In this document: in pieces, positions 11,317 to 30,414 of the stretch
Layout of the letters: each line of letters begins with the position of its first letter
How positions within the stretch are numbered: the first letter of the stretch is position 1
Source of the DNA: Raphidiopsis brookii D9
GTDB lineage: Bacteria; Cyanobacteriota; Cyanobacteriia; Cyanobacteriales; Nostocaceae
Length of the DNA: 32,000 nucleotides
Direction: 5' to 3'
Assembly (NCBI GenBank): GCA_000175855.1
Contig: ACYB01000036.1
Location: forward strand, 30,001 to 62,000
The notes under the pieces: generated by a model
Seen by the model: the letters and a program-made list of their open reading frames with translations, nothing else
Told to the model about the DNA's origin: nothing
The model's database searches: none
Made by a program: the position numbers and the translations under genes

Positions 11317-11367
11317 GAATAGTCAAGTGCAAATTTCAGAAATTCTCTAAAATTTTCCCAGTTTTTT

Positions 11368-11699: not shown

Positions 11700-11726
11700 T
11701 AAATTCCCCAGATACTTGGAGTTCTA

Positions 11727-13013
11727 CTAGCTGAATTGCTCCTCCGTATCCAAATTGAATAACATTTGTAAAGTTCGCATACAGTTACGTCTGGTTTCTA
11801 TGTCCTGTTGTGATCGCAATTGTACCATAGGATCATGTAATATTTTATTAACTATTCCTCTAGTCAGAGCTTCAATTACTTCCTGATGTTTTTCGCCAAA
11901 TTCCGAACCCAATCGGGAAAGAGCCTTTTGTAATTCTTGTTCACGGATGTGTTCGATTTTATTTCTCAAAGAACTAATAGTAGAGACGGTTTCCAAACTG
12001 CGCCACCAGATATCAAAAGACTCCACCTCTTCGTCCAGGATTTTTTCAGCTTCCTGGGCCATTTTGCGACGACTTTCGTAGTTTTGAGCTACGACTGCTT
12101 TTAAGTCATCCACATTAAAAACCTGGACATTATTTAAATGACTTACATCCGAGTCCACATTGCGAGGCACAGAGATATCAAACAACATGAGAGAATGGTT
12201 AGGGTCTAAAGCCATTTCTAATTTAGAGCGGTTGATAATTGGTTCTGTGGAGGAAGTACTAGTAAAGACTAAATCACTATGAGAAATAACAGACATCATT
12301 TCCGGGAGGAGATGAATGTGAATAGTCACCTCTGGGAACTGTTTAGCCAGTTCTGCTGCTCGCTCCCGGGAGCGATTAACAATACTAATATGGGATGCGC
12401 CCTTAGAAATCAAATGTTGTACCAGTAGACGAGACATTTTTCCCGCACCCACAATTAGTACCCGGTATAGTTCTAAATTTTCTACCTTAATTTGTGCCAA
12501 CTCTACAGCTGCTGAACTAATAGATACCGCTCCAGTGCCAATACTCGTTTCAGAACGAACTCTTTTACCAGCAGTTAAAGCTTGTTTAAATAAACGATTT
12601 AAAATTGTTTTTACACCATTGTATTGCTGTCCCAGTTTGTGAGTATTTTTCACCTGAGCCAGAATTTGTCCTTCTCCAAGAACTAGACTATCCAAACCAG
12701 CAGCAACTCGCAAGATGTGAGTCACAGCATCAGTATGGATGAGAGTAAACAGATGTTGACGTAAAGAACCTACTGGTAGTTTGCTATGCTCAGCCAGAAA
12801 CTGGGTCACTTCCCGAATTCCCTGGGGGATATCGCTGCTGACAACATAAATTTCTAACCGGTTACAGGTACTGAGGATAGCCACCTCATCAATGTGAGGA
12901 TAGTTGAGCAAGTGAGCGATCGCACTTTCGGTTTGGGGTTCAGGAATACTTAGTTTTTCTCTTACTTCAACTGGGGCTGTTTTGTGACTTAACCCCACTA
13001 CTGCAATATTCAT
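11727..13013 (-). CDS. hemA: Glutamyl-tRNA reductase
   Basis: [23 protein letters not shown]...[11 protein letters not shown]...[10 protein letters not shown]...[13 protein letters not shown]...VGAGKMS are HemA signatures. The ORF is open to 13103, but ATG 13013 matches the canonical N-terminus. Confidence 0.9.
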
Positions 13014-13131
13014 CTTTAATTTCTTATGACTGGAATAACGCTCTTGCTGTTTTTCGTAGTTGTCATGGCAAAGGGTAACAAGTAATGGTATACCAGTTAC
13101 CAATTACCCTTTACCAGCTAGTTAACAAAAA

Positions 13132-14169
13132 TTAGTGGAGTTGTACAACTTTAGGTTGTTCAAACATGTGAATAGTATCTACAAAGCGAGCAGTCTTAGA
13201 CTGAGTAGAAATGACCAAACTTTGAGTTCTTGCACCACCGTGGAAGAACCGCACACCTTGCATCAAATTACCACTAGTAATACCACAAGCTGCAAACAAC
13301 ACAGTTTGACCAGATGCCAATTCATGAGCATCATAAACTTTATCTGGTTCATTAATACCCATAGAAGAAAGTCGTTCTAAATTAGACTCCTTGCTTTCGC
13401 CAATCAAACCAGTTTTAACCACTGCGGGATCGTAAATTAACTGACCTTGGAAGTGACCACCCAGGGCCCGCATAGCAGCAGCAGAAATTACACCTTCAGG
13501 AGCTGCACCAATACCCATGAGAGCGTGGATATTAGTACCAGCAAAACCGCAAGACAAAGCTGCACCGACATCACCATCAGAGATCAATTGAACTCTTGCA
13601 CCAGCTTCGCGGATCTCCTTAATTAAATCATTGTGGCGTTCGCGCTTCATAACAACGACCACCAGTTCTTCGATAGATCGGCCTAAGCATTCAGACAGAA
13701 TCTTGAGGTTTTCAGTAGCTGACTTGTTGATATCAACCTTACCCTTAGCTGCTGGGGGTGCGGCCAACTTCTTCATATAGAAGTCAGGAGCAGCAAACAG
13801 ACCTCCTCGTTCAGAAATTGCTAAAACTGCCATGGAACCGGGTTGTCCATAAGCTACCAGATTAGTACCTTCACAAGGGTCAACAGCAATATCAATTTCC
13901 ATTAATTCATCAGGGCTACAGGAAATAGCATTGTCTGGACTAGCACAAACTCCCACTTCCTCACCAATGTAAAGCATGGGCGCGTCATCACGTTCTCCCT
14001 CACCAATTACAATGCGACCGCGCATATAGATTTTATTCATCCGTTCACGCATAGCTTCCACTGCTACCTGGTCAGCAGTGTTCTTTTCACCCTTACCCAT
14101 CCACTTTGCAGAGGCGATCGCAGCTTGTTCGACAACCTCAATAATTTCTAAACCAATTGTATTTTCCAC
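13132..14169 (-). CDS. glpX: Class II fructose-1,6-bisphosphatase / sedoheptulose-1,7-bisphosphatase (GlpX type, the cyanobacterial dual-function enzyme)
   Basis: [41 protein letters not shown]...[21 protein letters not shown]...[10 protein letters not shown]...[20 protein letters not shown] is the GlpX family core. Confidence 0.9.
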
Positions 14170-14365
14170 AGGTCTACCCTCTTAATTGCTGATCTTTAGC
14201 GACTTTTGCTATGGCTATTTCAGTCTATAAGTCTACCAAAGTCCGGTACTTCAATGAGAAATACTTTGGATAATCAGTTTGTTAAGTTTTACAACCAGGA
14301 GAAGACACCGGTCTATTTTCCGATGCACAAGGATAAAATTTTGTCAAGTAAACAAGGATTAAGAA

Positions 14366-14923
14366 GTGGAAGGCAAAAATATCGAATCCGACTACCTATC
14401 ACTGATTAAATATCATCAGGGATGGATGAGTGAAGCTCTTAAACTAGCACAGATTGCGGGTGATGCAGGGGAAGTACCCGTGGGATGTATAATTGTTAAT
14501 TCCCAGGGTGATTTAATTGGTCAGGGGGAAAATCGCAAACAACGGGATCAAGATCCTACCGCTCATGCAGAAATTGTTGCCATTCGTTCAGCAGCAAGAA
14601 CCTTACAAAATTGGCATCTAGATCAATGTACACTTTATGTCACACTGGAGCCATGTCCTATGTGCGCTGGTGCTATCATTCACGCAAGGTTACAGACTTT
14701 AGTCTACGCGGTAGACGATCCTAAAACTGGTGCCATTCGTACTGTTATTAACATACCTAGTAGTCCTGCATCCAATCACCGGTTACGAATTATTGGAGGT
14801 ATTCTGGAATCTGCTTCCCGTCAACAATTACAGTCTTGGTTTGTATATCAAAGATCCCAAAAAACTCAAAAATCTGGTTACGGATCAAATGGTAATGAGT
14901 TATCGACAGAGGAAATTAGGTAA
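14366..14923 (+). CDS. tadA: tRNA adenosine(34) deaminase TadA
   Basis: The CDA zinc motifs HAEIVAIR and LEPCPMCAGAI are present. The ORF begins at GTG 14366, with an alternative ATG at 14426 (MSEALKLA). Confidence 0.85.
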   Translation: MEGKNIESDYLSLIKYHQGWMSEALKLAQIAGDAGEVPVGCIIVNSQGDLIGQGENRKQRDQDPTAHAEIVAIRSAARTLQNWHLDQCTLYVTLEPCPMCAGAIIHARLQTLVYAVDDPKTGAIRTVINIPSSPASNHRLRIIGGILESASRQQLQSWFVYQRSQKTQKSGYGSNGNELSTEEIR

Positions 14924-14970
14924 ATTAGAAATAATCCAATTTGCGTCACATCCCCTAACTAGTAACCATC

Positions 14971-15711
14971 ATGAAGGAACCTCACTCCGCTTCGACCAGT
15001 TTTGCGGATCAGTCTCCAAATATTTGCTTAGATCCTCCCTTTTCCCACACTAGGTCCTGGATTTCTCCCTGGTTAACACCCTTGGCCTATTGGTTAGGAT
15101 ATCATCTAGTTATACCCTTGTTTTTTGGTTCTATTCATGTTGAGGGTCAAGAACATATTCCCATTAGAGGTCCAGTAATTCTAGCACCCACACACCGTTC
15201 TCGTTGGGATCCCCTGCTTTTAGCTTATGCTGCGGGGCGTTATATCACCGGAAGGGATCTGAGATTTATGGTGATGAGTAGTGAATGTCGAGGAATACAA
15301 GGTTGGTTTATTCTCAGTATGGGTGGTTTTGCTGTCAATCTTCAACGTCCGGGGATCAAATCTCTACGTCATGTTATAGATTTAATGTTGGGGGGAGAAA
15401 TGTTAGTTATTTATCCGGAAGGTGGAATTTTTCGAGATGGTAAGATTCATCCCTTAAAATCCGGTATAGCTCGTTTGTCTATAAATGCCCAATCTCTAGA
15501 CCCTAATTTAGACATCAAGATTATACCTGTTTCCATTAATTACGATCGACCCTATCCTAATTGGGGAACAAAAGTCAAAATTTGTATTGGTGAACCAGTT
15601 AAAGTTGCTGACTATATGCATGGTTGTTTAAAACAGAATTCTCAATATTTAACTAGGGATTTAAGAAGTAAATTACAAGAAGTTGCTGATTCCCAACCAG
15701 TTTCTCTTTAG
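14971..15711 (+). CDS. Lysophospholipid / 1-acyl-sn-glycerol-3-phosphate acyltransferase family protein (PlsC-like)
   Basis: HX4D motif APTHRSRWDP, then GGFAV and the YPEGG motifs, in the order typical of the AGPAT/LPLAT family. Confidence 0.75.
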   Translation: MKEPHSASTSFADQSPNICLDPPFSHTRSWISPWLTPLAYWLGYHLVIPLFFGSIHVEGQEHIPIRGPVILAPTHRSRWDPLLLAYAAGRYITGRDLRFMVMSSECRGIQGWFILSMGGFAVNLQRPGIKSLRHVIDLMLGGEMLVIYPEGGIFRDGKIHPLKSGIARLSINAQSLDPNLDIKIIPVSINYDRPYPNWGTKVKICIGEPVKVADYMHGCLKQNSQYLTRDLRSKLQEVADSQPVSL

Positions 15712-15733
15712 GAGCTAATTGCTTCCCCCACTC

Positions 15734-17805
15734 CTAATCCCGATAACCAATCAGTAATTCCCAACCATTGAGTTTACCTATATCCTGGGGAGAACAGTCA
15801 ACAACATGTAACTGCCAATTTCCCTTGGCTGATGAATTTAGTAGCTGTTTGAGAACTGGTTGGGAACTGACTGTATAGGTTTTTTCTAAACGGGTTTGTC
15901 TTCCCAAAGTACGACTTTGCAATAACAAAGACTGACTGTTAGGGGGGATCAAATAAACTTCTAGATCTCCCAAAAAATCATGGCTAATATTCACGCCAAT
16001 TCTAATATCATTAATAATAATATTTTGAGGAACCACAATTGTAGTTCTCACTCCTTGTTTTTCCCCATCGGGAATAGTAACTTGATTTTTATTTTCGCCC
16101 CTGATTAATTTATTGGCATTGTTGGCAACCAATCCATTACCTCGTAATTTTTGAGCTGCTCTGACTGCTTTAGCTGCATTCACCTTACCATAACCAAACC
16201 ACAAACAATGACCATTACTATTATAAGTACCTCCCTGCAAACCCAATTGAGGATCTGGTTGTGGATCAACAATTTTATCAGTGGTTTCTTGTAAAATACG
16301 GTTGACCTGTTGAGCAGTTAAATCCGGATTGGCTGATAACATTAATGCTGCTACTCCAGCAACCACAGGGGTAGCACTGGAAGTTCCACCAAAATTATTA
16401 GTGAAATTTCCAGGATTATAACCCGCTTTCCCTATTTGATCTGTTGTCAACATTCCCAGTCCATCTATAGTTGTTGAAATAGTTGGTTGGGTGTACACAA
16501 AACCACTTTCTTGAACCACATTCCCGGAGGAGCATTATTACTAGGAGCGCAAACAGAAATATTCTCTCCCCAATTGCTATAGGCCGCTTTTTTATTTAAA
16601 CTTGTAGATGCAGAAACGGCAATTACATCGGGATGAATAGCAAACCCACTTAACCACTTGGTTTTGCCTTTTAACAGATCCTTAGGCCAATTTTGCTCGT
16701 CTATAGTACCACTAATGGGACGGTTAGCATTACCTGCTGCAAAAAGAATTACACATCCTTTTCCATTACGTCCCTTGGTTGCAGCACGGGTAATTGCTGC
16801 TTTTTGGCGTAAAGATAAGGGAAAATAAACCGCAGATGCTCCCCAGCTACAGGAGATAACACTGGCATTGTATTTTAATGCCCAGTTGAATATGTCCTCA
16901 ATTGATTCATCATCCAAATATCCAGTTGTACGAATTGGCATGAGGGCACAACCAGGGGCCACACCAACAATACCCTGTCCATTTTCTTCAGCAACTGCTA
17001 GTCCAGCACAAGCAGTACCATGACTAGTTTCTTGCTCTCCTGGTAGGGGTAAAAAGTCTTTTTCTTTTAAATCCCTGGGAGCAACAATTTTACCCACTCC
17101 TTGTAAATCTGGGTGGTTCAAATCAAAGGAGTCATCCACAACTGCGACTACCACTGAACGTACCCCACGAGTTATATCCCAAGCTTGCTCTACAGAAATA
17201 TGCGAAGCGATCGCCAGTTGATTTCCACCACTGTGATTGAGATACCACTGTTGAGGATAGAGGGAATCGCTGGGTCTGTAATGGGTTTCTTGTTGAATAA
17301 AAACATTTGGTTCCGCTGCTAAGACTTCTGGTAGGGTTTGTAGTTGGTTGGCAATTTTGAGAGGATTATGTGGGGACTGTTTGCTGACTAAAAATGTAAA
17401 GGTATTGGGTAAATCAGCTATAGGTTGGTTTTCAGTGAGATTAAGTGAAGAGGTTATAATACCAATTTTATCATTATCTACCCCAGCTGCAAATTGAACT
17501 GTTATCTGATCACTCAAATAGACATAGCTGCTAGGGTTATCCTGTAATTGATAAACATGACTGGCAAAAGCTACTTTTTGATCAGATCTAGCTTGTGACA
17601 TAGCCGCTTCTATCTGATCTGGTGTAACAGTGAATAATTCCAACTTAGCTCTGGGAATAGTACGCTGCCATTTTCCCCAGGAGATCCTGGATAATTCCTC
17701 CCTGTTTAGGTCAGCATACAAACGAAGAGTAAAACGTTCCGTGGATTTTATGAGAATCAACTCCTCTCCACCACGTTGCAAAACTACTGGTTGGTCATTG
17801 ATCAT
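15734..17805 (-). pseudogene. S8 subtilisin-like serine peptidase with a C-terminal proprotein-convertase P-domain, interrupted by a 1-nt frameshift (pieces 16465..17805 and 15734..16519)
   Basis: Asp is in VVAVVDDSFDLNHPDL and His is in TSHGTACAGLA. After the shift, Ser is in FGGTSSATPVVAGVAALMLS. The C-terminal IRIGVNISHDFLGDLEVYLIPP...GNWQLHVVD...GKLNGWELLIGY looks P-domain-like. The text reads ISVCAPSNNAPPG, then in the adjacent frame NVVQESGFVYTQP. The shift lies in the CCCGG run at 16523-16527. Confidence 0.8.
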
Positions 17806-17939
17806 ATTCTTGATGATTAAATATTTTTGATAAACATACTGGAAACTATGCTTAACTTAGTATGGTGGTCACTATATTGTATATCAAGTTGGAGGGATTT
17901 TCCCGTCAACCGCTTTAAGTCCCCAAACCATTTGACTTT

Positions 17940-18509
17940 ATGAACCTCAAAACTATTTACTTATTGCCCATAATATTTTGTGGTCTGTCCTTACCCGTCC
18001 AATCTCAGGTAGTCCAGTCACCAAATAAACCAGTACAGACTAAACCTAATGATAACCAACCTAGTCCGACCCCAAGGAAGAGTGAAAATACCAGTGTATT
18101 AAGTATTACAGGAGGCGATCGCCTGATGAAGGAGGGACAGGAAGCGGTGTCTGGCAAAAACTATACTCTAGCGGTCAAAAAACTCCAGGAAGCGCGTCAA
18201 ATATATAATCAGCTATCTACCTTTTACCAAGAATTAAATGCCAGTTTTTCCGGGATTGATTTTAGCGTCTCTGATTCCCACCGCAAAAAGGCCCTAGAAA
18301 CAGCCCAAAAACGAGACGAAGCGACTTATCAATTAGCATTGGTACATCGCTCATTAAACCAACCTGATTTGGCCATACCTCTTTTAATTCAAGTCATTAA
18401 AAGTCAAAACCCTACCTGGGAACTAGGCAAAAAGGCCTATCAACAGCTGTGGGAACTAGGTTTTGCGGACATAGCTTATCCTGGAAAGACGGAAAATCCA
18501 GGAAAGTAG
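17940..18509 (+). CDS. Secreted hypothetical protein (signal peptide, helical/TPR-like body)
   Basis: MNLKTIYLLPIIFCGLSLPVQSQ has signal-peptide character, followed by a Pro/Asn/Gln-rich linker and helical repeats. I recognise no family. Confidence 0.55.
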   Translation: MNLKTIYLLPIIFCGLSLPVQSQVVQSPNKPVQTKPNDNQPSPTPRKSENTSVLSITGGDRLMKEGQEAVSGKNYTLAVKKLQEARQIYNQLSTFYQELNASFSGIDFSVSDSHRKKALETAQKRDEATYQLALVHRSLNQPDLAIPLLIQVIKSQNPTWELGKKAYQQLWELGFADIAYPGKTENPGK

Positions 18510-18564
18510 CAGATTTTGGATTAACTGATAATAATTAGAGAAGGATGTTTTTCTAGGAATAACA

Positions 18565-18795
18565 ATGATAACTCCCCAACAGGTTGAACAAATGATTAAA
18601 GGAGAACTACCAGATGCACAAGTACAAGTGCAAGACCTAACTGGTGGTGGAGACCACTATCAAGTAACAGTGGTTTCATCGCAATTTGCGGGTAAAGGAC
18701 TTGTACAACAACATCGGATAGTTTATGATGCTTTAAAACAAGCTATGTCAACCGAGGCTATTCACGCTTTGGCTTTGAAAACATGTGCTCCCTAG
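18565..18795 (+). CDS. BolA family protein
   Basis: 76 aa with [34 protein letters not shown]...IHALALKT, the BolA/IbaG fold signature. It is adjacent to a monothiol glutaredoxin, its known partner. Confidence 0.8.
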
Positions 18796-18831
18796 ATTAT
18801 GGACAATTAACACAACAAGGAATTAAAAACC

Positions 18832-19167
18832 ATGACAGTAGAAAACCCAACAGAAATTAAAGCAACAATTGATAAATTAGTCAAAGAAAACAAAATAATG
18901 GTTTTCATGAAAGGAAATAAATTAATGCCTCAATGTGGTTTCTCTAATAATGTTGTACAAATTCTCAACACTTTAGGAGTCCCCTTTGAGACCTTTGATG
19001 TTCTTTCTGACTATAACGTTCGTCAAGGTATTAAGGAGTATTCCAACTGGCCCACAATTCCCCAGGTTTACATTAATGGAGAATTTATTGGCGGGTCTGA
19101 TATTTTGATTGAACTATATCAAAAAGGTCAATTACAGCAAATAGTTGAAGTAGCATTAGCTTCTTAG
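18832..19167 (+). CDS. grxD: Monothiol (CGFS-type, Grx4 family) glutaredoxin
   Basis: [24 protein letters not shown]...[19 protein letters not shown] contains the CGFS active site and the glutathione-binding motifs. Confidence 0.9.
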
Positions 19168-19191
19168 ATATCCTCTTTAGTCCTCCTATTC

Positions 19192-19372
19192 AAGCAGGGC
19201 GTTTTCAAAGTCCGTGGTAAATTGCAAAATGACTTTTTAAAAACCCTTTTCCACACAGCGATCGCAGCTTTTTTTCTTAATTTTCGATTAATTAAATTTT
19301 AAAAAAAGCCCAAACATTGACGGTAAAAATGTTCTGGCGATCGCAATTTTGGAGAATGAAAACGCCCTGCTT
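19192..19372. mobile_element. Candidate MITE-like element: 16-bp perfect terminal inverted repeats enclosing about 150 bp of AT-rich non-coding DNA
   Basis: AAGCAGGGCGTTTTCA (19192-19207) is the exact reverse complement of TGAAAACGCCCTGCTT (19357-19372). The interior carries two HIP1 sites (about 19259 and 19338) and has no credible ORF. It sits at the boundary between core genes and the accessory island. Confidence 0.35.
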
Positions 19373-19427
19373 AGAGAAGCTATCCATTAGTGAGATATTT
19401 TTTAACAAAAAGCGGATTTGGGAAAAT

Positions 19428-19661
19428 ATGAAGGTCTCATTCGAAAAAAACTATCCAAATATTACCCGATGGATTGATGAGCATGAAGGCTTGATTGAAA
19501 TTGGCTACGATGACGATGATCCCTTAAATTCTTTTATCCGTGCTGTAGATTCTGGTGGAACACTATGGGAAGGAAAAGAAAGTTATGAAAGTATCGATGC
19601 AGCACTGCAAGATTTAAATGCGGGGCTGGCATCTGTATTGGAAGAGATTTATGGAGAATAG
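19428..19661 (+). CDS. Small acidic hypothetical protein (77 aa)
   Basis: The ORF is open from 19317, but its upstream part overlaps the inverted-repeat element. ATG 19428 gives MKVSFEKNYPNITRWIDEHEGLIEIGYDDDDPLNSF..., which I cannot assign to a family. Confidence 0.4.
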   Translation: MKVSFEKNYPNITRWIDEHEGLIEIGYDDDDPLNSFIRAVDSGGTLWEGKESYESIDAALQDLNAGLASVLEEIYGE

Positions 19662-19671
19662 ATTGCACTAA

Positions 19672-20784
19672 TCAGTGTAAACCACTATCAAGTTTATCTA
19701 AAACAAAGTGATTCCCACTCTCAAAATGTCCAAAAATTCTTTTAGCATCCCGGTCTGACCAAGCATCTATCTCATGGGTAGACGGAGGACGGGGATTTCC
19801 TTTGAGTGCTTTTAAGTCAAGAGATGATACATTACATTTACCTCCTGATTCTAAATTCCTTGCTAACTGGTCTATTCTCTCGTTAATTAATACTAATCTA
19901 TCCCCTGATATTCCCTTCAAACTACCCTCAAACCTAGATCCATAACTTAACATTTCACTGGGTGAAGGATGCAACCTCTCCCCATAAATCTCTTTATTTG
20001 TTCTTTTCCACACCAACTCTCCCCAAGGAGATAAAGAGACTTCACCTCCTACCGTCATTAATAGGGTTTCTGGTACACCACTAACGTCAGCAGTTTTCAT
20101 TTTATTTGCCAGTCTACGAAAAACTTGAAGATGGTCACGTACGCTGTCTTCTACTACCATTTTCACGGGCAATTTTGGTATGCGCAACAGGTCTTTGGCT
20201 GTTTCAAAAATGTAAATTGTCTCGTCTGCATAAAATGTGGCTAGGGTTTGTAAAAATCCCTGCACACTCTTGAATCCCCCAGTTAAGTTAAATATAATCT
20301 TATATTGGGAATTTCTATACTCAGGTATGGTATCTTCAAACCACTCCACCATATCTGATAAAGCAATTTGAAAGGACTCAATATCTTTTGTTTGCAGATC
20401 GGTCCTTCGGATTGTCTCAACTATAAAACCCCTTTTTCTTAACCAGAATTTTACCAAAGTAGCTGTCTGTTCCCCTAACCAGGTGTCAGTACAAAGCAAA
20501 AAGTGAGTGTCTGCTTTCTTCTCTAACTTACCATTATAAAGTTTAATAATGCCATTTAGCTCCGCTGACATCTTACTTGCTAACTCAAGATCAGCAGATG
20601 CTAGTTTTTCTTCTACTCTCTTAGCAAGCGATCGCAGTGTTAGGCTATCTTCTGGCGGTATATCTTGAATGTATTTTGCATTAGCATATTTACTGACCAA
20701 ACCTCTTTCCTCTTGAGCTGCTTGATTGGTCAACAAACTTGTGCCACAGGGTGAGAAAACAAATAAACGATTTTCCATGATCAA
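19672..20784 (-). CDS. CARF-domain protein of the APE2256 type with a C-terminal RelE/ParE-like region (CRISPR-ancillary-type effector)
   Basis: N-terminal FVFSPCGTSLLTN, then SAELNGI and NLTGGFKSVQG, which are motifs I associate with the APE2256/TIGR02619 CARF family. The C-terminal THEIDAWSDRDAKRIFGHFESGNHFVLDKLDSGLH resembles the last strands of RelE-fold toxins, and that part is inferred. Confidence 0.65.
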   Translation of the reverse strand: MIMENRLFVFSPCGTSLLTNQAAQEERGLVSKYANAKYIQDIPPEDSLTLRSLAKRVEEKLASADLELASKMSAELNGIIKLYNGKLEKKADTHFLLCTDTWLGEQTATLVKFWLRKRGFIVETIRRTDLQTKDIESFQIALSDMVEWFEDTIPEYRNSQYKIIFNLTGGFKSVQGFLQTLATFYADETIYIFETAKDLLRIPKLPVKMVVEDSVRDHLQVFRRLANKMKTADVSGVPETLLMTVGGEVSLSPWGELVWKRTNKEIYGERLHPSPSEMLSYGSRFEGSLKGISGDRLVLINERIDQLARNLESGGKCNVSSLDLKALKGNPRPPSTHEIDAWSDRDAKRIFGHFESGNHFVLDKLDSGLH

Positions 20785-20842
20785 GGTTTCTGGTTACAAG
20801 GGGTAATTTTATACTTTGGGACAGAGGTTCCAAACAAGTTTG

Positions 20843-22111
20843 TTAAGAAAGGGTGTTAGCAATGGTCTTTAACTCGAGTATAATCTGACCTGCTCTTGTT
20901 TCTAAACTTTCTGCTTTTTGAGGACTCTTGTTCATACCCACATGGGCAATATCATTGCGAATTTCGATTAACTTACCCCATTGTAGGGAAAACAAATTAA
21001 AATCAGGTAGTTTTTCAAATTCATCATCCCAAGGGGAAACAGATGTTATTTCTTTGCCACGAAGTTTAATTTGTCCATTATTGAGCGCATTCCCCACCTG
21101 TTCTCGCTGGTCTTTACTTAGTAGATCTTGTTCACCCAATCGATATGCTAAAACGGAAACTAGCCATTCTCTTGCTAAAGTCATAGCTTGCACAACTTGA
21201 TGTCTTTGTATATACCAATCTATTAGTTGAAATTGTAATCTCAGCCCTTGAGCTAAATTTTCGCTATTAGTGGGATTTTCTAGGGCAAATTGTCCATATT
21301 CCTGGGTTAATTTTTGAGAAATCAGTCCAAAAGGTTTAGCTCTTTTATCAAAACTACGCTCTGCTTTTTTGATAATTTTCTCTAATTTTGTAGTTTCTTT
21401 TAAAATTTCTACAGGACGGACAAGACCTATAGCCAGAGAAATTTGATTAATAATGTCAGCAGTATCTTTAAATTCTCTAGCTAGAGGTCGTATAGTCGGA
21501 TCATCTCTTTTTTCATCATTAGAAATTGCATTTTTTAACAGCTCTGCTAAGGGAGAACCATCACCTACTTTGACAAATCTATCTGCGGCCGCAAGCCAGT
21601 CTAATAAGCTGAGCATGGGCAATAAATCATAGGTGGGGGTATCTGCACCTTGGGCATTAGGGTCAAAAGCTCCATATAACACACCTTCAATTTGTACCTG
21701 TTTTACCGTACGTAGGTAGCTAATAGCTAACAAGGCAATAACTGGAATGGAACGGAAACTATGGGTCAGGTCAAAAATAACCCTATCGCCCTCGTTTAAA
21801 CAACTAGTAATTTTATCAAAAATTAACCAACTGTCATCCAAAGAATTACTCTCGGGAATATCAAAAACAGGCTCTAATTTAACAGATTTATTAGCTAGTT
21901 GTTCTTGTAATCCTTGCCAATTAGATACAGTTCCATTTCTGGGAATTTTAGTAGCTACCGTGGGTGTTAATAATACATATAATGTATCAGGTTGATAAAA
22001 TTCAACCAGGGCTTCCTGAAAAAATTTAGTCCTTACTGCTTGACTAGTTGTGGGATGGATATAATTGGTCTCGGTGTAATTATTAAAACCAAGAAAGGAA
22101 ATAATTTTCAT
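20843..22111 (-). CDS. Csx1/Csm6-like CARF-HEPN protein (TM1812 / DxTHG-motif family)
   Basis: The N-terminus MKIISFLGFNNYTETNY is the TM1812-type start. VIFDLTHSFRSIPV is a DxTHG-type motif with Ser replacing Gly. The C-terminal LIEIRNDIAHVG contains the Rx4H HEPN ribonuclease motif. Confidence 0.75.
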   Translation of the reverse strand: MKIISFLGFNNYTETNYIHPTTSQAVRTKFFQEALVEFYQPDTLYVLLTPTVATKIPRNGTVSNWQGLQEQLANKSVKLEPVFDIPESNSLDDSWLIFDKITSCLNEGDRVIFDLTHSFRSIPVIALLAISYLRTVKQVQIEGVLYGAFDPNAQGADTPTYDLLPMLSLLDWLAAADRFVKVGDGSPLAELLKNAISNDEKRDDPTIRPLAREFKDTADIINQISLAIGLVRPVEILKETTKLEKIIKKAERSFDKRAKPFGLISQKLTQEYGQFALENPTNSENLAQGLRLQFQLIDWYIQRHQVVQAMTLAREWLVSVLAYRLGEQDLLSKDQREQVGNALNNGQIKLRGKEITSVSPWDDEFEKLPDFNLFSLQWGKLIEIRNDIAHVGMNKSPQKAESLETRAGQIILELKTIANTLS

Positions 22112-22218
22112 CTGTTTACAAGGTTACTTACTGGTATTATGAAATGTTCTTTTATTTACATGTTTTAATTATACTAACCCGCGAATAAAAATTGTGTCAT
22201 CTACCTGGCGGAATAGAA

Positions 22219-22240
22219 ATATCTATCTTTAGATAGATAT
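22219..22240. repeat. Perfect palindrome ATATCTATCT-TT-AGATAGATAT immediately 3' of the truncated vapC
   Basis: The 10-bp arms at 22219-22228 and 22231-22240 are exact reverse complements. The element lies 5 nt downstream of the vapC stop (22246-22248). Confidence 0.6.
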
Positions 22241-22245
22241 CTAAT

Positions 22246-22515
22246 CTAAACTATAAGGGAATCACCTACGGACATTTTTTGCTGTTGGCGCAAAGCAACC
22301 GCAATTTCAAGCGTAACTTTATTGATCATCAAAACATCCAAGTTATCTAAAATCGCCATGATGGCCTGTTTTTCAGCATCACCTAAACGATGGTAGCCCA
22401 ATGTTTCCAAACGACTAATCGCAGAATAATGCGTGGCATAATTCACCAACCAGCTACGCAACTGCGTATATGGCGGCTGAGTGGCGTAAATAATCAAATT
22501 ACTATCAATCAGCAT
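22246..22515 (-). CDS. vapC: PIN-domain VapC-like toxin, apparently C-terminally truncated (89 aa)
   Basis: MLIDSNLIIY supplies the first PIN Asp, SRLETLGY the Glu, and SVGDSLIV the third acidic residue. The ORF then stops, and the usual final 35-40 aa (the xTxNxxDF region) are missing. The ATG at 22515 overlaps the upstream antitoxin stop by 11 nt. The ORF track extends the start to 22587. Confidence 0.6.
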   Translation of the reverse strand: MLIDSNLIIYATQPPYTQLRSWLVNYATHYSAISRLETLGYHRLGDAEKQAIMAILDNLDVLMINKVTLEIAVALRQQQKMSVGDSLIV

Positions 22516-22774
22516 CCTCTCTCCCGAATAAATTGCGATCTTGCCTTTGTTCACGCTGCCAAACAACTGGATCAGCAATTTCTGCAAAAGGATTTAACGC
22601 CACCGCCTGCGCCAATGCTTGCGCCAAAACTTCCCGCCTTGCTTGGTTTGAAGTGATAGGCCTTTTTTTTCGTGCTTTTTGTTCTAGGTAAACAGCATAA
22701 TTCAGTAACTCCGCTTGCGATGATATCGGTAGAGCGGCAGCATGGTGTTGAATTTGTTGCAAAATAGGGTTCAT
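22505..22774 (-). CDS. Type II antitoxin (DUF2281/VapB-like), 89 aa
   Basis: MNPILQQIQHHAAALPISSQAELLNYAVYLEQKA resembles DUF2281-type antitoxin N-termini. It is translationally coupled to the PIN gene through an ATGCTGATTGA overlap. The ORF track extends it to 22921, but that region overlaps the FkbM gene end and reads as non-coding. Confidence 0.55.
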   Translation of the reverse strand: MNPILQQIQHHAAALPISSQAELLNYAVYLEQKARKKRPITSNQARREVLAQALAQAVALNPFAEIADPVVWQREQRQDRNLFGREDAD

Positions 22775-22880
22775 AGCTCCTGTCGTTTGTCTAGTACCGG
22801 CGATATCTATATTACTGCTCAACAGGAAGCAGGTAAATAACACTCCTCTATGTTGTTGCTTTAGCACGGGGAGTGTCAAC

Positions 22881-22914
22881 TGTAGTATCTTTACAGATGT
22901 AGTATCTTTACAGA
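22881..22914. promoter_or_regulatory. Perfect tandem duplication of a 17-mer (TGTAGTATCTTTACAGA x2) upstream of the antitoxin gene; candidate TA operator
   Basis: The two copies at 22881-22897 and 22898-22914 are identical. On the minus strand each unit carries CTGTA-N7-TACAG inverted arms, and a TTGACA hexamer follows directly downstream (22875-22880, minus strand). The operator role is inferred from how autoregulated TA promoters usually look. Confidence 0.4.
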
Positions 22915-23708
22915 CTGGCATGAGTGTCGTACCATGGCTCCTTAAGATTGAGTGTTTCTATGAGCATCCTACCCAGAGGATATCTATAAATAATCCCCTG
23001 TACGCCCAATATTTTATAGAACCAGAAAATGCGTTTGTAGATATTAATTGCTGCTCTTTCTGAAAGCCAATGACCGGGTGTTTCTTCTCCAAATAATCCA
23101 CTAGCACCAAATTCAAATTGATGTTCAATGTAATTGCCTTCTCTTGCGGGATATGGGCAAATTTGTTGTGCAGTTTTCTCTTGGTTAATAACTTTAAATT
23201 TCTGATAACCGAGTTCTTTTAAGAGCTTAAATTCTTCCAACAGGCTACTCCACGAAGTTTTGACTGATTCTATGGAAATAAACTGTGGCTTAGTATCAAA
23301 GTGTTTGAGCGCCTGAACGCATAATATATCTGAACCTTCAATATCAACTTTTAGATAATAGGGAATGCCAAAGTCTTGTAAAATATTTTCAAATCTAGCC
23401 CCTTGTACAGTAATAGCCTCCGATTTGGTACCCAGAATTTCATTGCGAACAACAAAATCTGAAGAAGTTGTCCCCCAAATACTTTTGTCTAGGTTGGTAT
23501 AGAAGGTAATTTCGCCATCTTGGGGGGCGATTGCTACATTGAGGAGTTGAAGTTGACCATTATCTATATATGATTGTAGTTTATTTTTTGTTGCTTCATA
23601 AATTTGGGGGTTGGCTTCTATACCCACCACTCGAAAACCTTTTTTTAAATAGTATTCGGTATCTTCACCCTGATGAACACCAACATCTATTATTAAATTT
23701 TTATCCAT
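22908..23708 (-). CDS. FkbM family SAM-dependent methyltransferase
   Basis: IIDVGVHQGEDTEYYLKKGFRVVGIEANPQIY is the FkbM-type motif I region, and the size (266 aa) is typical. Confidence 0.8.
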   Translation of the reverse strand: MDKNLIIDVGVHQGEDTEYYLKKGFRVVGIEANPQIYEATKNKLQSYIDNGQLQLLNVAIAPQDGEITFYTNLDKSIWGTTSSDFVVRNEILGTKSEAITVQGARFENILQDFGIPYYLKVDIEGSDILCVQALKHFDTKPQFISIESVKTSWSSLLEEFKLLKELGYQKFKVINQEKTAQQICPYPAREGNYIEHQFEFGASGLFGEETPGHWLSERAAINIYKRIFWFYKILGVQGIIYRYPLGRMLIETLNLKEPWYDTHASL

Positions 23709-23884
23709 AGATAATAAGTTTTCCTAATCGTTCTCCCAAGCATACTCCTCCATATTAACCCATTACCTCGTTGCTGTCTACCTAATCCAGCGCAATCGCA
23801 CTGCACTCCCTGTGATCGCTCTTCCCGTACCACCGCATCCCCAAAATTAATATAATGGGGGAGTCCTACCTGAATTTAAAGATA

Positions 23885-24736
23885 ATGGTCACCACTTTAA
23901 AACCAGTTTCCACCCTACCAACACAGGACGAATTACCTTGCGATGATGGAGTGCCAATGGAGACTCAACGTCACAAAATGCAAATAGAAATCCTGATAGA
24001 AACCCTAGGTCCATGGTTAAAGAATCGCGAAGATGGCTACATTGGTGGCAATATGTTTGTATACTTTAGTGCCAATGAAATCAAAACAGAAGATTTTAAA
24101 GGACCAGACTTTTTTGCGGTATTGGGAGTACCAAAGGGAGAGCGGAAAAGTTGGGTGGTATGGCAAGAAGGAAAAAGTCCAGATGTGATTATAGAGCTGT
24201 TATCAGAGAGTACAGCCAAAACAGATAAGATAACCAAGAAAAAAATCTACCAGGAGCAAATAAGGGTACCAGAGTATTTTTGGTATGACCCCTTTGACCC
24301 AGAAGACTGGCAAGGGTTTGGGCTAAGGGATGGAGTTTACGAACCATTGGAGCGGATAGATGGGATGTATGAAAGCAAGCAGATGCAATTAAAGCTAGTG
24401 CGGTGGGAAGGGGATTATGAAGAGGTAAATGCGGTATGGCTAAGGTGGGCAACTTTAGAAGGAGAACTGCTACCAACCCGGTCAGAGATAATAGAACAGG
24501 AACGATTAGCTAAAGAACAAGCAGAAGCTTTAGTTATTCAGGAACGCCAACAAAGGGAGATAGCAGAAACCCTAGCTATTCAAGAACGCCAACAAAAGGA
24601 GGTAGCAGAAGCCCTGGCTATTCAAGAACGCCAACAAAAGGAGGTAGCAGAAGCCCTAGCTATTCAAGAACGTGAGAAGAAGGAAAAATTAGCTGCCCAC
24701 TTGCGCGCTCTTGGCATCAACCCAGATGAGATTTAA
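23885..24736 (+). CDS. Uma2 family (DUF820) PD-(D/E)xK endonuclease-like protein with a repeat-containing coiled-coil C-terminus
   Basis: LPCDDGVPMETQRHKMQIEIL...GGNMFVYF...PDFFAVLGV...PDVIIELLSESTAKTDKITKKKIYQEQIRVPEYFWYDP is the Uma2 core. The ORF is open from 23855, but ATG 23885 (MVTTLKP) is the likelier start. Confidence 0.8.
   Translation: MVTTLKPVSTLPTQDELPCDDGVPMETQRHKMQIEILIETLGPWLKNREDGYIGGNMFVYFSANEIKTEDFKGPDFFAVLGVPKGERKSWVVWQEGKSPDVIIELLSESTAKTDKITKKKIYQEQIRVPEYFWYDPFDPEDWQGFGLRDGVYEPLERIDGMYESKQMQLKLVRWEGDYEEVNAVWLRWATLEGELLPTRSEIIEQERLAKEQAEALVIQERQQREIAETLAIQERQQKEVAEALAIQERQQKEVAEALAIQEREKKEKLAAHLRALGINPDEI
24521..24672 (+). repeat. In-frame 42-bp tandem repeat, about 3.6 copies, encoding AEALAIQERQQKEV units inside the Uma2 gene
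   Basis: The units begin at 24521, 24563, 24605 and 24647. Units 2 and 3 differ at only 2 of 42 positions, and the fourth diverges after CAAGAACG. Confidence 0.9.
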
Positions 24737-25168: not shown

Positions 25169-28100
25169 CTATAAGTGGGCAAGTTTTTTTATGTTCTCTC
25201 TCCATTCCTCGTTGTATTTCAATACCAGTACTTGGTACTTTGTCTCCCTCCTCACCTTTTCTCTCTTTCTTTTGTCTTCTCTTTTCTGCTCTTCTGTGTC
25301 ATGCACAGACCCATCACAAAAAATGGCAATTTTGTCTATGTATACAAAGTCTGCTTCACAATCAGTCCCTGGTATTAAAAATTGCGCAGCATCGGGCATT
25401 CTATATCCTCTTTCGTAAATCTCTTTTATCACTTCCCTCTCTAACTCAGATCTCCTATCCGTCTGTAAATACAGTGTTTCAAATTCTTTCTCTCTGTCCA
25501 TCTCCCTTTCTCTCTCTAAATAACTCTCCTTAATCTCTTCTAACAGTTCTTTTATTAAATGTCGGTTGATTAAGTTATGCTCATTCTGATTTCTATAAGA
25601 AAGCAGGCACTGGTAACAAGCATAAACACAATCCTCTTTCGGTTCGTAAAAATGACAAATGTCTAGTGCTTTCTCCGCTATTTTATTCAGGTGTTGTTTA
25701 TCTTGTAAAATCTGGGATAAAACTCCCGCTCCCCCCTCCGCAGCTTCCCAAAATAGTAGATATTTACCATTCCCCATTTTTTCTGAGTCTAGTTCATTCG
25801 GTTCTAAGTTATAATGCTCTTGTATTCCTCTCTCTAAAGCATATTGCAGGCTTGTCATTATTGTCTCTGTGTCTTCTCTATTCTCACTTTTCCCCTGGTC
25901 TATGGTGTCTATTTTTGATTCCTCTGCTTCTTTAATTAATTCAATAATTAATATGTTACAAGTAATATTCACCATCAGAAAAATGTCACTTTTGGTTGTA
26001 GTGCTATTTTTCCCTATTTCTTCTTTATTCTCTTCATTCTCATTACTTATCCATTTGCCTGTTTGCGTATCTAAACAAAATCCTTGGTCTTTCTTTTTTG
26101 CTGACCCTCTATTAATTCTCGATATGCTCGCTGTCGCTCCATAAGTCAGTTTTAACAGATTCTTCCCCTCTTTGGTTTTTATTATTACCGTCTTTTTGTT
26201 CCCTTCACTATAACAAAAATGAGTGGTTATGTTATATCCATATTTTAATCTCTCTTCTTCATCACAAGTAATTCTTTGCTTTTTCTGAGTATATACTGTA
26301 TCCATGGATAGAATTTGATTAACTTTAGCACGTTCATTTTTATCTGAGTATGCTTTAATATCTCTTTCGCAATTTTCACACCAGTCTTTAGTATCAATAT
26401 TATAAATATAACCACAGTTAAAGCATACTGTTGCTCTCTGATATTGATTTTCTATACCACCGAGGATTTTACTCCTGGAGATCATGAATTTATCCCCCTC
26501 ATGATAAATTATGTTCCGAGGAGCAAATTCTCTCAGAGCAACCGAACGCAGTCGAGAAATAAATTCACCCCCTGTTGGTTATTAATAAACGCCCGCACCG
26601 GTAAACGGGGAAAATTAAACCCTGGTAAAAATCCCTCAGCAGCAAAGTAACGATAGGGATAAAATTCATTTTGTTGATTATTTCTACTGTTCCCCCCTAT
26701 TAATAATTCCATCTGTCTTTTTGCCTCCTTTTCCTGTCTTTCATAGTCATCTGCTTCTGTTTTCCCTTGTAAATACTTATCCCTTTTTTTTGTCGCTTCT
26801 TCTAATTGTGCTTTTGCACTTTGGTAAAGTTTTCTCCACCTTTCACAGTGTTGATTAAACGCACTAGGTGCATTTTCTATAATCCCTTCTACCCAGTCTT
26901 TTATATACCAGTTGGTCTGTCTCAAGTCTTCTTGACAAAACTCGTCCGCTAAAATTTCCTCACAGGCTTTCACACAACTCTCAAATTTACTTACCTGCCT
27001 AAACTCATCACCACTCTTTCTGTCGTGATTATTAAACTCACTTACAGTCTTCCTAAGATTTATTCTTTCTATTATGTCATCCCGAAGTGGATAGTCCTTA
27101 TCTCCCAGTTCTAAAATATTGGTCATAGAATCCCCCAAATATATTCCCGTATGAGCTAACCATATAGAATAAATGTGGGATTTAATTAAATCTTCATTGC
27201 CTAGTTCTATTTTTGGCGGTGCTACTATACCAGATACCATTTGGGATTGTCTATGAAAAAAGTATTGGTCATGTCCACTACTATTGGAAGCATAAGTAAT
27301 TACTAAGGCTTCTTGTCCACTTCTCCCTGCTCTTCCACTTCTCTGTGCATAATTAGCTGGATTAGGTGGAACATTACGTAAATGTACCACACTTAAATCA
27401 GAAATATCTATTCCTAATTCCATTGTAGGTGAGCAAAACAAACTCCCTAAAATCCCCTGTCTAAATTTCTCTTCCCGCTCCTGACGCACTTGACTAGAAA
27501 CCTGTCCCGTATGTTCTCTACCCTCTATTGTTTGAATCTCTCTAGCATGATTCTGGTAGAAGTTTTGAAAGAAACTGTTAACCGTAATTTTATTTGGTTC
27601 TGTATCTTTTAATCCCTTAAATGATAGAATATCTACCGGAATTTCTGCCTTTTGGGCAGATTTCCAAATCAAACAGTCAACTCGCAATTGTATTTCTAAC
27701 GGCGTTAAATCCGAGTTAGAGTTAGCCTTACTTTTTTTCGTTAAAATTCCAACATTAATTAAAGCAAGAATTAAACACCTAATTAAATCATTGTACTCAG
27801 ATTCACATAAATCCGTACTACGACCAGACCAGTTATCACAGGAACGTAAAAACTTACCCAATTTACTGTAAGCAGTCAGTTTTACCCTAGTTTCATCATT
27901 GGTTTGCTTAGAAGTAGAATCACCAGTTTTGTTTAGCACTGCCCACCTAGCCATCTTCGGCTTTTCATCAGGCTCAAAAGCCCATGGATCCTTTATAGCT
28001 TGATTAACATTTCGTACCAGACTATCCTGTTTATCCCTCTGCAATAAAATTGCATCCATAGCCAATTCCCTTCTTAAAAGGTCCAGTAGCACAACACAGG

Positions 28101-30414
28101 CCTTGTATCTTTCAGAAAAACTAGCTTCTAAAAGAACAACATGGCTATGCTTTTGCCAAACCTCCTTGTTACGACAAGCCTCCTCTAGTCCATCATATTC
28201 AATCTCTAACAGTCCACATTGCTCCAAATTCGGTTGTACAATTCGCCATCCCCGTCGCAAGTCTTGGTATAGTCGATACTCTATTAATTGGGCAAAAGCA
28301 TTTTCATTTCTTCTTCTACCATTGTCAAACTCCACCACCTCCTTAGCGTAGTCACCTTGAGACAGATTCATTTGCTTAATTACAGCAGAAACTAGACTTC
28401 CGTGCCTTAGTTCCCCCTCCGCTTGCAGAGCACCTAACAAAGCACCCCTTAAAAAACTGGTTTGAACAAAATCATTAAAATGTCCTGCTTGTAAAGAAGC
28501 ATCTTGACGATTATCAGTAAAACTCAGGATTTTAGCAGCTTTCGCCTTTTCCCCTTTGAAAATGCTTTTCAACCGGGTAACAGTGGATAAACATAAGAGC
28601 GTAGTTGCCGTACTTCTTCCTTCACTGCTTAAACTAGATAGTTTAGAAAACTCATTCTTATGACCAGAATGAAAAGTTCCACAATGTAAACAAAACCTAA
28701 AAGGGTGAGGAACAAACCAACAGGTATTCCCCTCTAGCAGGGAACCTATCTTCCCAGATGGTAATATTTGCAGTGATTGGGGGACAAAACGTTCATAATC
28801 TTTTTTTATTTCCCTTCCCCTCCTTTTCGTTTCTTTGAACCAGCTATCGGGTAATTTTTCTCGGTCCTGTGGATCATGCCAAAGATTAGGTCGATTTAGG
28901 ATTAGGTAACCTGAGATTTTTGGGTCCTCCGAAACCTCATCATCAAAACTACGGGGGAAAATGCCTTCATTTGGTAAGTAATTAACCAAGTAATAATCCT
29001 GTCCACATTCCCGGCAAAACACTAGGGGAAAAAGTAGCCGATTTTCAGTGGTGGAATATTGACCATCAAGGGTTAAAACTCGATACTCGGGATTTTCAAT
29101 AGTAGAGTACACATTTCCCGCTTGTGAGATAAATTGATGCAATCGAAAAGTTAATCCTTTCACCCTACTTCCCCATAAAAACATCTCTTGAATGATGTCT
29201 AAACAAGTCTCTTGAGGAATTTGTGTTTCGTCAGCTAAAAGTTTGGCTCCTGCTTCTAAAGTAATAGGCGTACGTCTTACTAACACATGTCGTTTATTCT
29301 CTTGTTTATCTTCTTCTTTTCCCCTCTCTAATGTGTGTTCTAATACTTCATCTAGTCCAAAAGTTGTTTCCATCCAATAGCTGAGGGGATGAGCCTTAAA
29401 CTCTTCTATAGTTTGCTGTGAAGTTTCTGATAATCCTTCAATAATGCTAGTACGTAACTCTTCAACCGTAGGTTTATGTCTGACTATAGAGCGTTGTAAA
29501 GATTCAGTGATGACATTTTGTTGGAGAATTTGTTTACCGAATATTTTACTGGCTACATTAGCTACTACTTGACGACGACTCACAAGAGAGTTTTCCGTAG
29601 ACATAGTAGCACTAGTACCAATATATAATAAATCTTGACCACAGCGCTGGCGTAACTTACGGATAAGAATAGCCACATCAGCACCTTGACGACCTCGATA
29701 GGTATGTAATTCATCAAGGACCAGAAATTTTAAGTGAGGGGAACTGACTAATTTTTCTTCATGCGTGCGAGAGAGCATCAGTTCCAGCATTACATAATTA
29801 GTCAGGAGGATGTGGGGGGGATTATTTTGGATTTCATTCTTGGTTTGTAAACTTTCTTGTCCCGTATATTTAGCAATGCGGATAGGGGAATTGGGTACAT
29901 TAGCAAGAAACTTATTTAATTCTTCCTCTTGGGAATTAATTAGAGCATTCATAGGATAAACTAGAATTGCCCTCACACCTTTTATTTCAGGATTATGGAG
30001 CAAATCATTAAATATAGGAACAATATAAGTCATACTTTTCCCCGAACCCGTTCCCGTTGTTAACACATAGGATTGACAAGTTTGTGCCACCTCAAAAGCC
30101 CGTTTTTGGTGGAAATGAAAATGAAAAGGTTGGTTATTTTTAGAGAAATAGGCAATACACTCAGGATGGAGGAGACCTTTATCTACCAATTCAACTACTG
30201 TTGCTCCTGGTGTATATTGGGGATTTAGTTGTAGTAAGGGAGAATTCCAAAATTTTCCACTAGTTAGTTCCTGATTGACAAATTCTTCAACTCGTTGATC
30301 CTGAATTTTTAAAAAACTTTTTATGTAGCGGTGATAGTCATCAACTATCTCTTGACGGAATTGAAAAATATCTAGAAAGTTAGGGAAATAGTGAGGGTGG
30401 TTCATTGATTTCAT
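25169..30414 (-). pseudogene. Large DExH-box helicase (COG1205/YprA-like core) fused to a DUF1998 zinc-ribbon domain and a C-terminal Vsr/DUF559-like endonuclease domain; about 1748 aa after repair of one frameshift (pieces 26533..30414 and 25169..26485)
   Basis: Helicase motifs LTTGTGSGKSM (I), LVLDELHTYRG (II, DExH), GTSATM (III), FTDNRQDA and QRSGRAGRSG (VI). The DUF1998 region is YRYFAAEGFLPGFNFPRLPVRAFI, then after the shift GGEFISRLRSVALREFAPRNIIYHEGDKF...VCFNCGY...WCENCE...CYQCLLSYRNQNEH. The C-terminal EREVIKEIYERGYRMP...ADFVYIDKIAIFCDGSVHD looks Vsr/DUF559-like. The frames rejoin if the C5 run at 26568-26572 is read as C6. Confidence 0.8.

Follow-up and report, generated by a model that had tools for sequence, protein, structure and literature searches.

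The genome of Raphidiopsis brookii D9 carries two adjacent CARF effector genes, csx1 and a gene for a Cami1-like CARF7-RelE protein, in a 32-kb stretch of contig ACYB01000036.1 (positions 30,001 to 62,000 of the forward strand). This whole stretch was analyzed and is called the window here; all coordinates refer to it. An initial annotation made from the letters of the sequence had described the two genes as stand-alone effectors, one CARF-HEPN and one CARF-RelE-like, without cas genes nearby. The pair and the segment that carries it are as follows.

19588..22253, minus strand: csx1/CARF-RelE cassette of 2.67 kb, which recurs in a second chromosomal context
20843..22111, minus strand: csx1, for the predicted CARF-HEPN effector Csx1 of 422 amino acids (aa), with the DxTHG-type motif D114-x-T116-H117 and the HEPN motif R385-N-D-x-x-H390
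20779..20842, minus strand: spacer of 64 bp between csx1 and the CARF-RelE gene
19672..20778, minus strand: Cami1-like CARF7-RelE gene, 368 aa counted from the ATG; predicted domains are a CARF7/Crn1-like sensor and ring nuclease (residues ~1-205), a middle domain (206-267) and a RelE-fold domain (268-368)

Domain identities of the two proteins

The 422-aa protein matched the PADLOC profile CARF2--CARF_HEPN over its full length (E 1.1e-116). It also scored above the cut-offs of TIGR02221 (161.7 bits; cut-off 76.25) and of the DxTHG model TIGR02549 (39.7 bits; cut-off 21). In an alignment of 33 sequences, the CARF-side residues D114, T116 and R120 were invariant and H117 was nearly invariant, and the HEPN Rx4H motif R385-N386-D387-x-x-H390 was invariant as well. 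These profile matches and motifs bear out the CARF-HEPN assignment made earlier for 20843..22111. By its sequence, the protein is classified as Csx1, a type III ancillary CARF-HEPN protein; it is 98.8% identical to RefSeq WP_071249451, and a look-up of its exact sequence gave no record.

The product of the second gene matched the PADLOC profile CARF7--CARF_RelE over its full length (E 1.3e-139), in addition to Pfam PF09651 (Cas_APE2256; E 7e-34, 117.1 bits, cut-off 24.8) and TIGR02619 (45.2 bits, cut-off 37.45). An AlphaFold2 model was built from 60 homologues and had a mean predicted local distance difference test (pLDDT) score of 90.4. When the full model was compared with the PDB using Foldseek, the top matches were to Cami1 (8PHB_B and 8PHJ_X, E 1.2e-15 and 1.9e-15, respectively). 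The superposition covered 375-387 aligned columns with a probability of 1.00 and a template modeling (TM) score of 0.54-0.59, at a sequence identity of just 18-20%. The next matches, on the CARF part, were the Crn1 ring nucleases Sis0811 and SSO1393. The CARF7 profile scores and these structural matches agree with the CARF assignment of this protein, which had first been counted as 370 aa.

The initial annotation had also proposed a RelE-like C-terminal tail and had named its fold beforehand as decisive. An AlphaFold2 model of the C-terminal 101 aa (pLDDT 82.9) was used in a separate Foldseek search, and the top 23 PDB hits were all RelE, HigB or ParE toxins. The best match was the M. jannaschii RelE 3BPQ_B (E 8.7e-4, probability 1.00, TM score 0.51/0.59). 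On the basis of the models, 19672..20778 is taken to encode a Cami1-like CARF7-RelE protein.

In the family profile alignment, residues S12 and K169 of Sis0811, which are mutated in PDB entries 7PQ6 and 7PQA, correspond to S14 and K170 of the CARF-RelE protein. Among 60 CARF-RelE homologues, G12 and K170 were invariant and S14 was nearly invariant. The CARF7 ring-nuclease/ligand residues S14 and K170 are thus present in the predicted protein sequence, and catalysis by them is predicted. More generally, the motifs GTSLLTN, SAELNGI, NLTGGFKS, DLTHSFRS and RNDIAH, which had been picked out of the translations initially, are found there, and in the family alignments they occupy columns that are invariant or nearly so.

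The start of the CARF-RelE gene was revised. The TTG at 20784, which had been taken as the start (370 aa), sits two codons upstream of an ATG at 20778. Homologues of the protein are 368 aa long, and the product counted from the ATG is 100% identical to RefSeq WP_009343608.1 (P0252 in our protein set), which is listed with accessions from Raphidiopsis brookii D9 and C. raciborskii CENA303. The gene likely starts at the ATG at 20778, which would put the gap to csx1 at 64 bp. The earlier description of two adjacent genes, co-oriented on the minus strand, stood with its coordinates for both open reading frames (ORFs), but its gap of 58 bp did not. The 64-bp spacing is common to all copies of the pair that lack adjacent cas genes, which are called orphan copies below.

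Cami1 (PDB 8PHB, apo; 8PHJ, bound to cyclic tetra-adenylate [cA4], 70S ribosome) shares the architecture of the CARF-RelE protein, in which a CARF7/APE2256 domain at the N-terminus is followed by a middle domain and a RelE fold at the C-terminus. The window protein is shorter than Cami1 (368 versus 406 aa) and lacks adjacent type III genes. In relatives, the Cami1-like gene lies at the 3' end of type III loci, adjoining Csx1. The activity of Cami1, its cA4 ligand and its binding to the ribosomal stalk are carried over to the window protein as predictions. The CARF7 fold is shared with the Crn1-type proteins Sis0811 and SSO1393 too (PDB 7PQ2 and 3QYF; Foldseek E ~1e-11 to 1e-10, profile E 3.5e-14). 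However, these are sensor/ring-nuclease proteins without a RelE effector domain, unlike the window protein.

A Csx1 is likewise paired with a CARF7-RelE protein in Synechocystis sp. PCC 6803, where SyCsx1 (slr7061) and SyCsm6 (sll7062) belong to the III-D locus CRISPR2 of pSYSA. In a motif-level comparison, the SyCsm6 residues S12, E70 and K167 (motifs GTS, SAE and GGFK) were present in the window protein, invariant or nearly so. The Synechocystis genes are divergent and belong to a III-D locus on a plasmid, whereas the window genes are co-oriented, III-B-derived, chromosomal and orphaned. SyCsx1 is a cA4-dependent RNase, and the adjacent CARF7-RelE protein SyCsm6 degrades cyclic oligoadenylate (cOA) and attenuates SyCsx1 (Ding et al. 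2022, PMC9676260). In vitro, SyCsm6 showed ring-nuclease activity and no RNase activity (PMC9676260). Csx1 and Cami1 are both defined as cA4-activated effectors and, with 54 loci, they are the effectors most often found together in type III loci (Hoikkala et al. 2024, PMC11229360). According to the summary in the same paper, Cami1 is a proven cA4-activated mRNase (PMC11229360). Two different effector outputs side by side, to which the initial annotation had drawn attention, are nothing unusual (PMC11229360, PMC9676260).

Related type III-B loci and the deletion scar upstream of csx1

The statement that no Cas10, cyclase, ring nuclease or array lies near the pair within the 32 kb was confirmed by repeat, Rfam, profile and phmmer searches. 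The window contained no CRISPR-like repeats or array and no Rfam families, and no cas, cyclase or ring-nuclease families were detected in its other ORFs of at least 90 aa. Neither a Cmr2 hidden Markov model nor phmmer searches with Cmr3-6 matched any window ORF. The repeat of the III-B array, GTCGCAATACCTATTCCTTCTTATGAAGGTCAAGAC, was absent from the window even when 6 mismatches were allowed. Accordingly, the parts of a complete III-B locus (Cas10/Cmr2 with a cyclase palm, Cmr3-Cmr6 and an array) were missing from the window.

In the closest relatives, the pair lies inside a complete type III locus, a finding that the initial annotation had said would reduce the novelty of the pair. In C. curvispora GIHE-G1 (CP060822), the genes of a complete type III-B locus end with csx1 and the CARF-RelE gene. 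The order of this locus is an array (at least 19 repeats of 36 nt), cmr2/cas10, cmr3, cmr4, cmr5, cmr6, csx1, the CARF-RelE gene and a second small array; the Cmr2 protein carries a GGDD cyclase motif. The same cmr2-cmr6/csx1/CARF-RelE operon was found in four C. raciborskii assemblies (including CS-508, NJIA01 and NJHV01). Array and cmr genes were all present in the loci numbered L012, L014, L028 and L029, and cmr genes were present in L030, whose contig begins too near cmr2 to reveal an array.

The window pair and the cmr-linked Cylindrospermopsis pair have the same order and orientation. They share 91-94% nucleotide identity, 93% and 88% protein identity and the csx1-proximal upstream region. 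The cmr-linked copies come after the array and cmr2-cmr6, whereas in the window copy none of these is present, and a segment from upstream of cmr2 is fused to csx1. Thus, csx1 in the window has no type III CRISPR-Cas locus around or beside it, while the 93%-identical sister-strain copy has one. Homology of the window to the cmr-linked loci was limited to 19670-22164 and a further segment at 22168-22240. The region upstream of csx1 is composed as follows.

22112..22164, minus strand: csx1-proximal upstream segment of 53 bp, equivalent to the cmr6-csx1 intergenic region; 86-88% identity to L012, L014 and L028-L030 (blastn and alignment)
22168..22240, minus strand: cmr2-upstream-like segment, a 73-bp match of 78% identity (E ~1e-12), collinear in five cmr-linked loci
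22219..22240, no strand assigned: palindrome ATATCTATCTAAAGATAGAT at the distal end of the cmr2-upstream-like segment, with a single occurrence in the window

In L014 and L028-L030, the counterpart of the 73-bp segment is upstream of cmr2 and separated by 57 bp from its start. One deletion event, about 6.2 kb long, would leave such an arrangement, with a match to the cmr6-csx1 spacer placed next to a match to the cmr2-upstream region. From the alignments, 22112-22164 and 22168-22240 are interpreted as the scar of this cmr2-cmr6 deletion. We also considered that the 73-bp match might be two copies of a dispersed element. This was rejected, because the dispersed copies of ATATCTATCTAAAGATAGAT share nothing further, whereas the window and the region upstream of cmr2 share about 50 more bases; the match is therefore specific.

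The palindrome is dispersed in related genomes. As a 20-mer, it was found in 11 of 30 loci. In Cylindrospermopsis genomes, it recurs in intergenic and often promoter-proximal positions (for example, L025 at 16198, 18065 and 20192; L020 at 8118 and 9985; L012 at 1817). Its locations include the regions upstream of cmr2, of orphan csx1 and of genes for outer-membrane proteins. A role as an operator, or as a recombination site or hot spot, is possible.

A promoter-like sequence, ATGACA-18-TAGTAT/TATAAT, lies within 22168..22240. In CENA303 (L016, ~8570-8620) and in a Logan contig (L017), the 25-bp unit TAGTATAATTAAAACATGTAAATAA is tandemly duplicated (two copies) over the TATAAT-like box upstream of csx1; the window has one copy. 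Among the cmr-linked loci, that of C. curvispora (L012, 1890-2313) has ~390-420 bp extra between the palindrome-containing segment and cmr2 when compared with the C. raciborskii cmr loci (L014, 3764-3798). This may be a small insertion in the presumed cmr2 promoter region.

The 2.67-kb cassette was found in two unrelated chromosomal contexts (blastn of the window against L016-L021, junction alignments and comparison of gene contexts). The context of the window, a junction between Grx/BolA and VapBC genes, is also present in CENA303 and the Logan contig. In seven other assemblies, the cassette is 98% identical and lies between an FHA-domain gene and a DUF1802 gene; no cas genes were found within 10 kb of the cassettes in this FHA/DUF1802 context. 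Three different upstream flanks join at most 3 bp from position 22253. At the cassette ends, no transposase, integrase, tRNA or terminal inverted or direct repeats were found.

All ten orphan copies examined (10/10) are intact. Of the variants counted within the orphan clade, 28 were synonymous and 23 nonsynonymous, corresponding to an omega of 0.23 (binomial P = 2.6e-7 against neutrality). Since all copies share the junction, these variants postdate the deletion. Pairwise ratios of nonsynonymous to synonymous divergence (dN/dS) were 0.12-0.33, and the family-invariant residues were all retained in both proteins. The orphan genes appear to be still functional: intact copies, an omega of this size and the kept invariant residues argue against a decaying relic. 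The CARF domains differ by 6-12% from those of the cmr-linked copies, with substitutions evenly spread across the domains. Synonymous divergence (dS) between orphan and cmr-linked copies was 0.15-0.21. The between-clade average nucleotide identity of ~93% (PMC6186047) is of similar order, which is compatible with a lineage-specific deletion.

Outside the genus, a homologue was found inside type III loci in L001, L009, L022 and L032, the last of which contains Cmr2-6, CARF-RelE, Card1 and Csx1. A homologue stands alone in L023/L024 (Chloroflexota) and in L031. Within the genus, a second III-B locus was detected (L013, C. raciborskii G7) with a 1065-aa Cmr2, Cmr3, Cmr4, Cmr5 and a 624-aa RAMP protein. 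It has its own CARF-RelE paralogue, 84% identical to that of the window, and apparently lacks csx1. This second locus was found in G7, GIHE-G1, CS-505 and DSH.

Genes and sequence features around the cassette

The initial annotation had placed the pair in a defence island. This was correct for one flank, on which defence-type genes are found: a truncated VapC gene with a VapB-like partner, a Uma2 nuclease gene, a split DruE-like helicase gene and a fragment resembling a type IIG restriction-modification gene. An FkbM methyltransferase gene lies on this side too. On the other flank, however, positions 1-19200 contain housekeeping genes (MnmG, HrcA, HemA, GlpX, TadA, BolA and Grx). Because defence-type genes lie on one flank only, the pair lies on the border of a variable region with a defence character, not in the middle of an island. 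The genes next to the cassette are the following.

22246..22587, minus strand: 3'-truncated PIN/VapC toxin gene, which abuts the cassette edge and is a flanking gene outside the effector pair
22505-22921: VapB-like partner of the truncated VapC

Over ~20 kb, the window and the CENA303 contig are 99.2% identical except for one indel. At the cassette edge, CENA303 and the Logan contig contain 1,252 bp that are absent from the window (window 22253-22255; L016 7247-8498). In CENA303, this segment encodes two ORFs of 274 and 70 aa without a family match and supplies the 3' end of a PIN/VapC gene that is intact there (129 aa). The VapC gene of the window is truncated because the window lacks this segment. 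For the 274-aa ORF, no Pfam hit was recorded, and no PHROG or NCBIfam hit was obtained.

At the other cassette edge, a 114-aa ORF (19317-19661, plus strand) is convergent with the CARF-RelE gene; the last ~24 codons of the ORF belong to the 84 bp that form the downstream tail of the cassette (19588-19671). The tail with this ORF end is also present in the second chromosomal context. That it was carried there suggests that the location on the Grx/BolA side may be the older one.

The Druantia-type DruE-like helicase (25169-30414, minus strand; DEAD, Helicase_C and MZB/DUF1998 domains) is divided into two ORFs of 1293 and 438 aa, while its CENA303 counterpart is a single gene of 1748 aa. The split comes either from a frameshift/pseudogene or from an error in sequencing. 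A DruH-like partner was not found in the window. A second frameshift in the same 32 kb affects a subtilase S8/proprotein-convertase gene (15734-17805, minus strand), which is split into overlapping ORFs of 446 and 261 aa and corresponds to one 690-aa gene in CENA303. The Uma2 gene (23855-24736) contains a 42-bp tandem repeat in 3.6 copies (24520-24672), encoding a repeated C-terminal QERQQKEVAEALAI motif. Adjoining the DruE-like gene, a 392-aa ORF (30464-31642, minus strand) matches the C-terminal part only of type IIG restriction-methyltransferase models (PADLOC, 7e-24) and has a weak hit to the Alw26I-family methyltransferase. It is possibly a fragment, or else a specificity/methylase subunit of its own.

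Source of the signal and function of the pair

We consider it probable that the pair is a displaced type III-B ancillary module, in which cmr2-cmr6 were deleted and the effectors remained intact, and which receives its signal from a Cas10 elsewhere. Judged by its relatives, it is a displaced piece of an ordinary III-B locus rather than a new system that stands alone. A deletion of ~6.2 kb in an ancestor would have taken out cmr2 (cas10) through cmr6 and joined the region upstream of cmr2 directly to csx1, possibly with capture of its promoter. The 2.67-kb remnant would now reside at the Grx/BolA-VapBC junction here and at the other site in other strains. By homology, Csx1 would be a dimeric CARF-HEPN RNase switched on by cA4. 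The CARF7 domain of the second protein would bind cA4 and probably also degrade it, as Crn1 and SyCsm6 do, and cleavage of mRNA in the ribosomal A site would fall to the RelE domain. During infection, the two proteins would jointly stop translation and afterwards reset themselves. Since the pair makes no signal, it would depend on cA4 from a distant Cas10, a cyclase encoded elsewhere in the genome and acting in trans. Inter-locus signaling has been proposed for effector-less, cyclase-positive type III loci (PMC11229360). The initial annotation had left a choice between action in trans with a distant type III locus and an independent abortive-infection pair. The former is our best functional guess, and we see nothing that supports the latter.

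Several observations weigh against this interpretation. The window itself has no Cas10 or array. The orphan-cassette strains compared were D9, CENA302/303, MBQY01, NPIK/NPIL, LUBZ and JAPTY. None of them was among the members listed for the cluster of the first-locus Cmr2 (752-754 aa) or for eight more Cmr protein clusters from the two III-B loci of the genus; the members listed include many Australian, Asian and other strains. No genome with both an orphan cassette and a cmr locus was found among the loci compared. A promoter scan upstream of csx1 yielded a site no better than the shuffled expectation. Finally, a phmmer comparison of the CARF-RelE protein with Cami1 aligned the CARF part only (E 6e-6), with an identity of 18-20%. 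The strain distribution hints that the orphan lineage may lack both known III-B loci.

A candidate for a genome with both the orphan pair and a cmr locus was CS-508 (OHY33724/33731/33925/33926). It was rejected, as this accession series spans two assemblies: MBQX01 is CS-508 and cmr-linked, and MBQY01 (MVCC14) is orphan. For MVCC14, 9 'CRISPR repeats' are given in a genome table (PMC6186047). In the literature on the CRISPR content of D9 and CENA303, nothing usable was found.

It is quite unlikely that the two genes are an evolutionary leftover, that is, the undeleted tail of an operon that has not decayed yet in strains whose type III complexes were lost. Such a leftover would fit the clean cmr2-cmr6 deletion, the lack of Cmr proteins from orphan-cassette strains among the cluster members listed and the degraded look of the neighbours (split DruE-like and subtilase genes, truncated VapC gene). 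It is contradicted by the ten intact orphan copies, by the mostly synonymous variation that arose after the deletion, by the retention of every family-invariant residue and by the maintenance of the cassette in two chromosomal contexts.

We find it very doubtful that the pair has become an autonomous abortive-infection system, repurposed to a non-CRISPR cyclic oligonucleotide and no longer in need of Cas10. The ligand would then come from a cyclase of the type used in cyclic oligonucleotide-based antiphage signaling systems (CBASS), or be a phage product or a cellular nucleotide. Yet no cyclase was found in the 32 kb, nor in flanks of 10 kb around the other orphan copies, and the 6-12% divergence of the CARF domains with its even spread of substitutions gives no sign of a changed ligand. 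The literature examined also holds no precedent for activation of Csx1 or Cami1 without Cas10. In favor of the idea, purifying selection acts on the genes without an adjacent Cas10, and they recur as a self-contained cassette beside other defence genes. In other phyla, lone CARF-RelE or Csx1 genes occur without nearby cas genes (L023/L024, Chloroflexota; L031), and CARF homologues outside CRISPR-cas loci have been described as abundant (PMC12669027).

Least likely is that removal of cOA by the CARF7 ring nuclease, as a damper of the signal that protects the cell, is the main selected function, with Csx1 carried along: although the CARF7 domain is, after Cami1, structurally nearest to Sis0811/SSO1393 and keeps the S and K residues, and although SyCsm6 behaved in vitro as a ring nuclease that had no RNase activity (PMC9676260), the RelE domain and the HEPN motif of Csx1 are conserved as much as the CARF domains, Cami1 is a proven cA4-activated mRNase per the summary in PMC11229360, and a source of cOA would still be required.

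Both effector families are well described, and their pairing is the commonest in type III loci, so the displaced III-B module that we favor is no new kind of system. Its value is modest. It provides a clean natural case of effector orphaning, with a datable deletion of the Cas10 complex, an apparent capture of the region upstream of cmr2, relocation and continued purifying selection. It is unlikely, in our estimate, that the South-American Raphidiopsis/Cylindrospermopsis lineage (D9, CENA302/303, MVCC14-type) has lost every Cas10 and yet keeps and moves the cassette under purifying selection. If it has, the cassette would be a Cas10-independent sensor-effector module responding to a cyclic oligoadenylate or another ligand from a non-CRISPR source. 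If a Cas10 is present elsewhere in the lineage, the cassette would illustrate trans (inter-locus) cOA signaling, which has so far been proposed mainly from statistics; if the lineage is without Cas10, it would offer a testable case of CARF effectors acting outside CRISPR.

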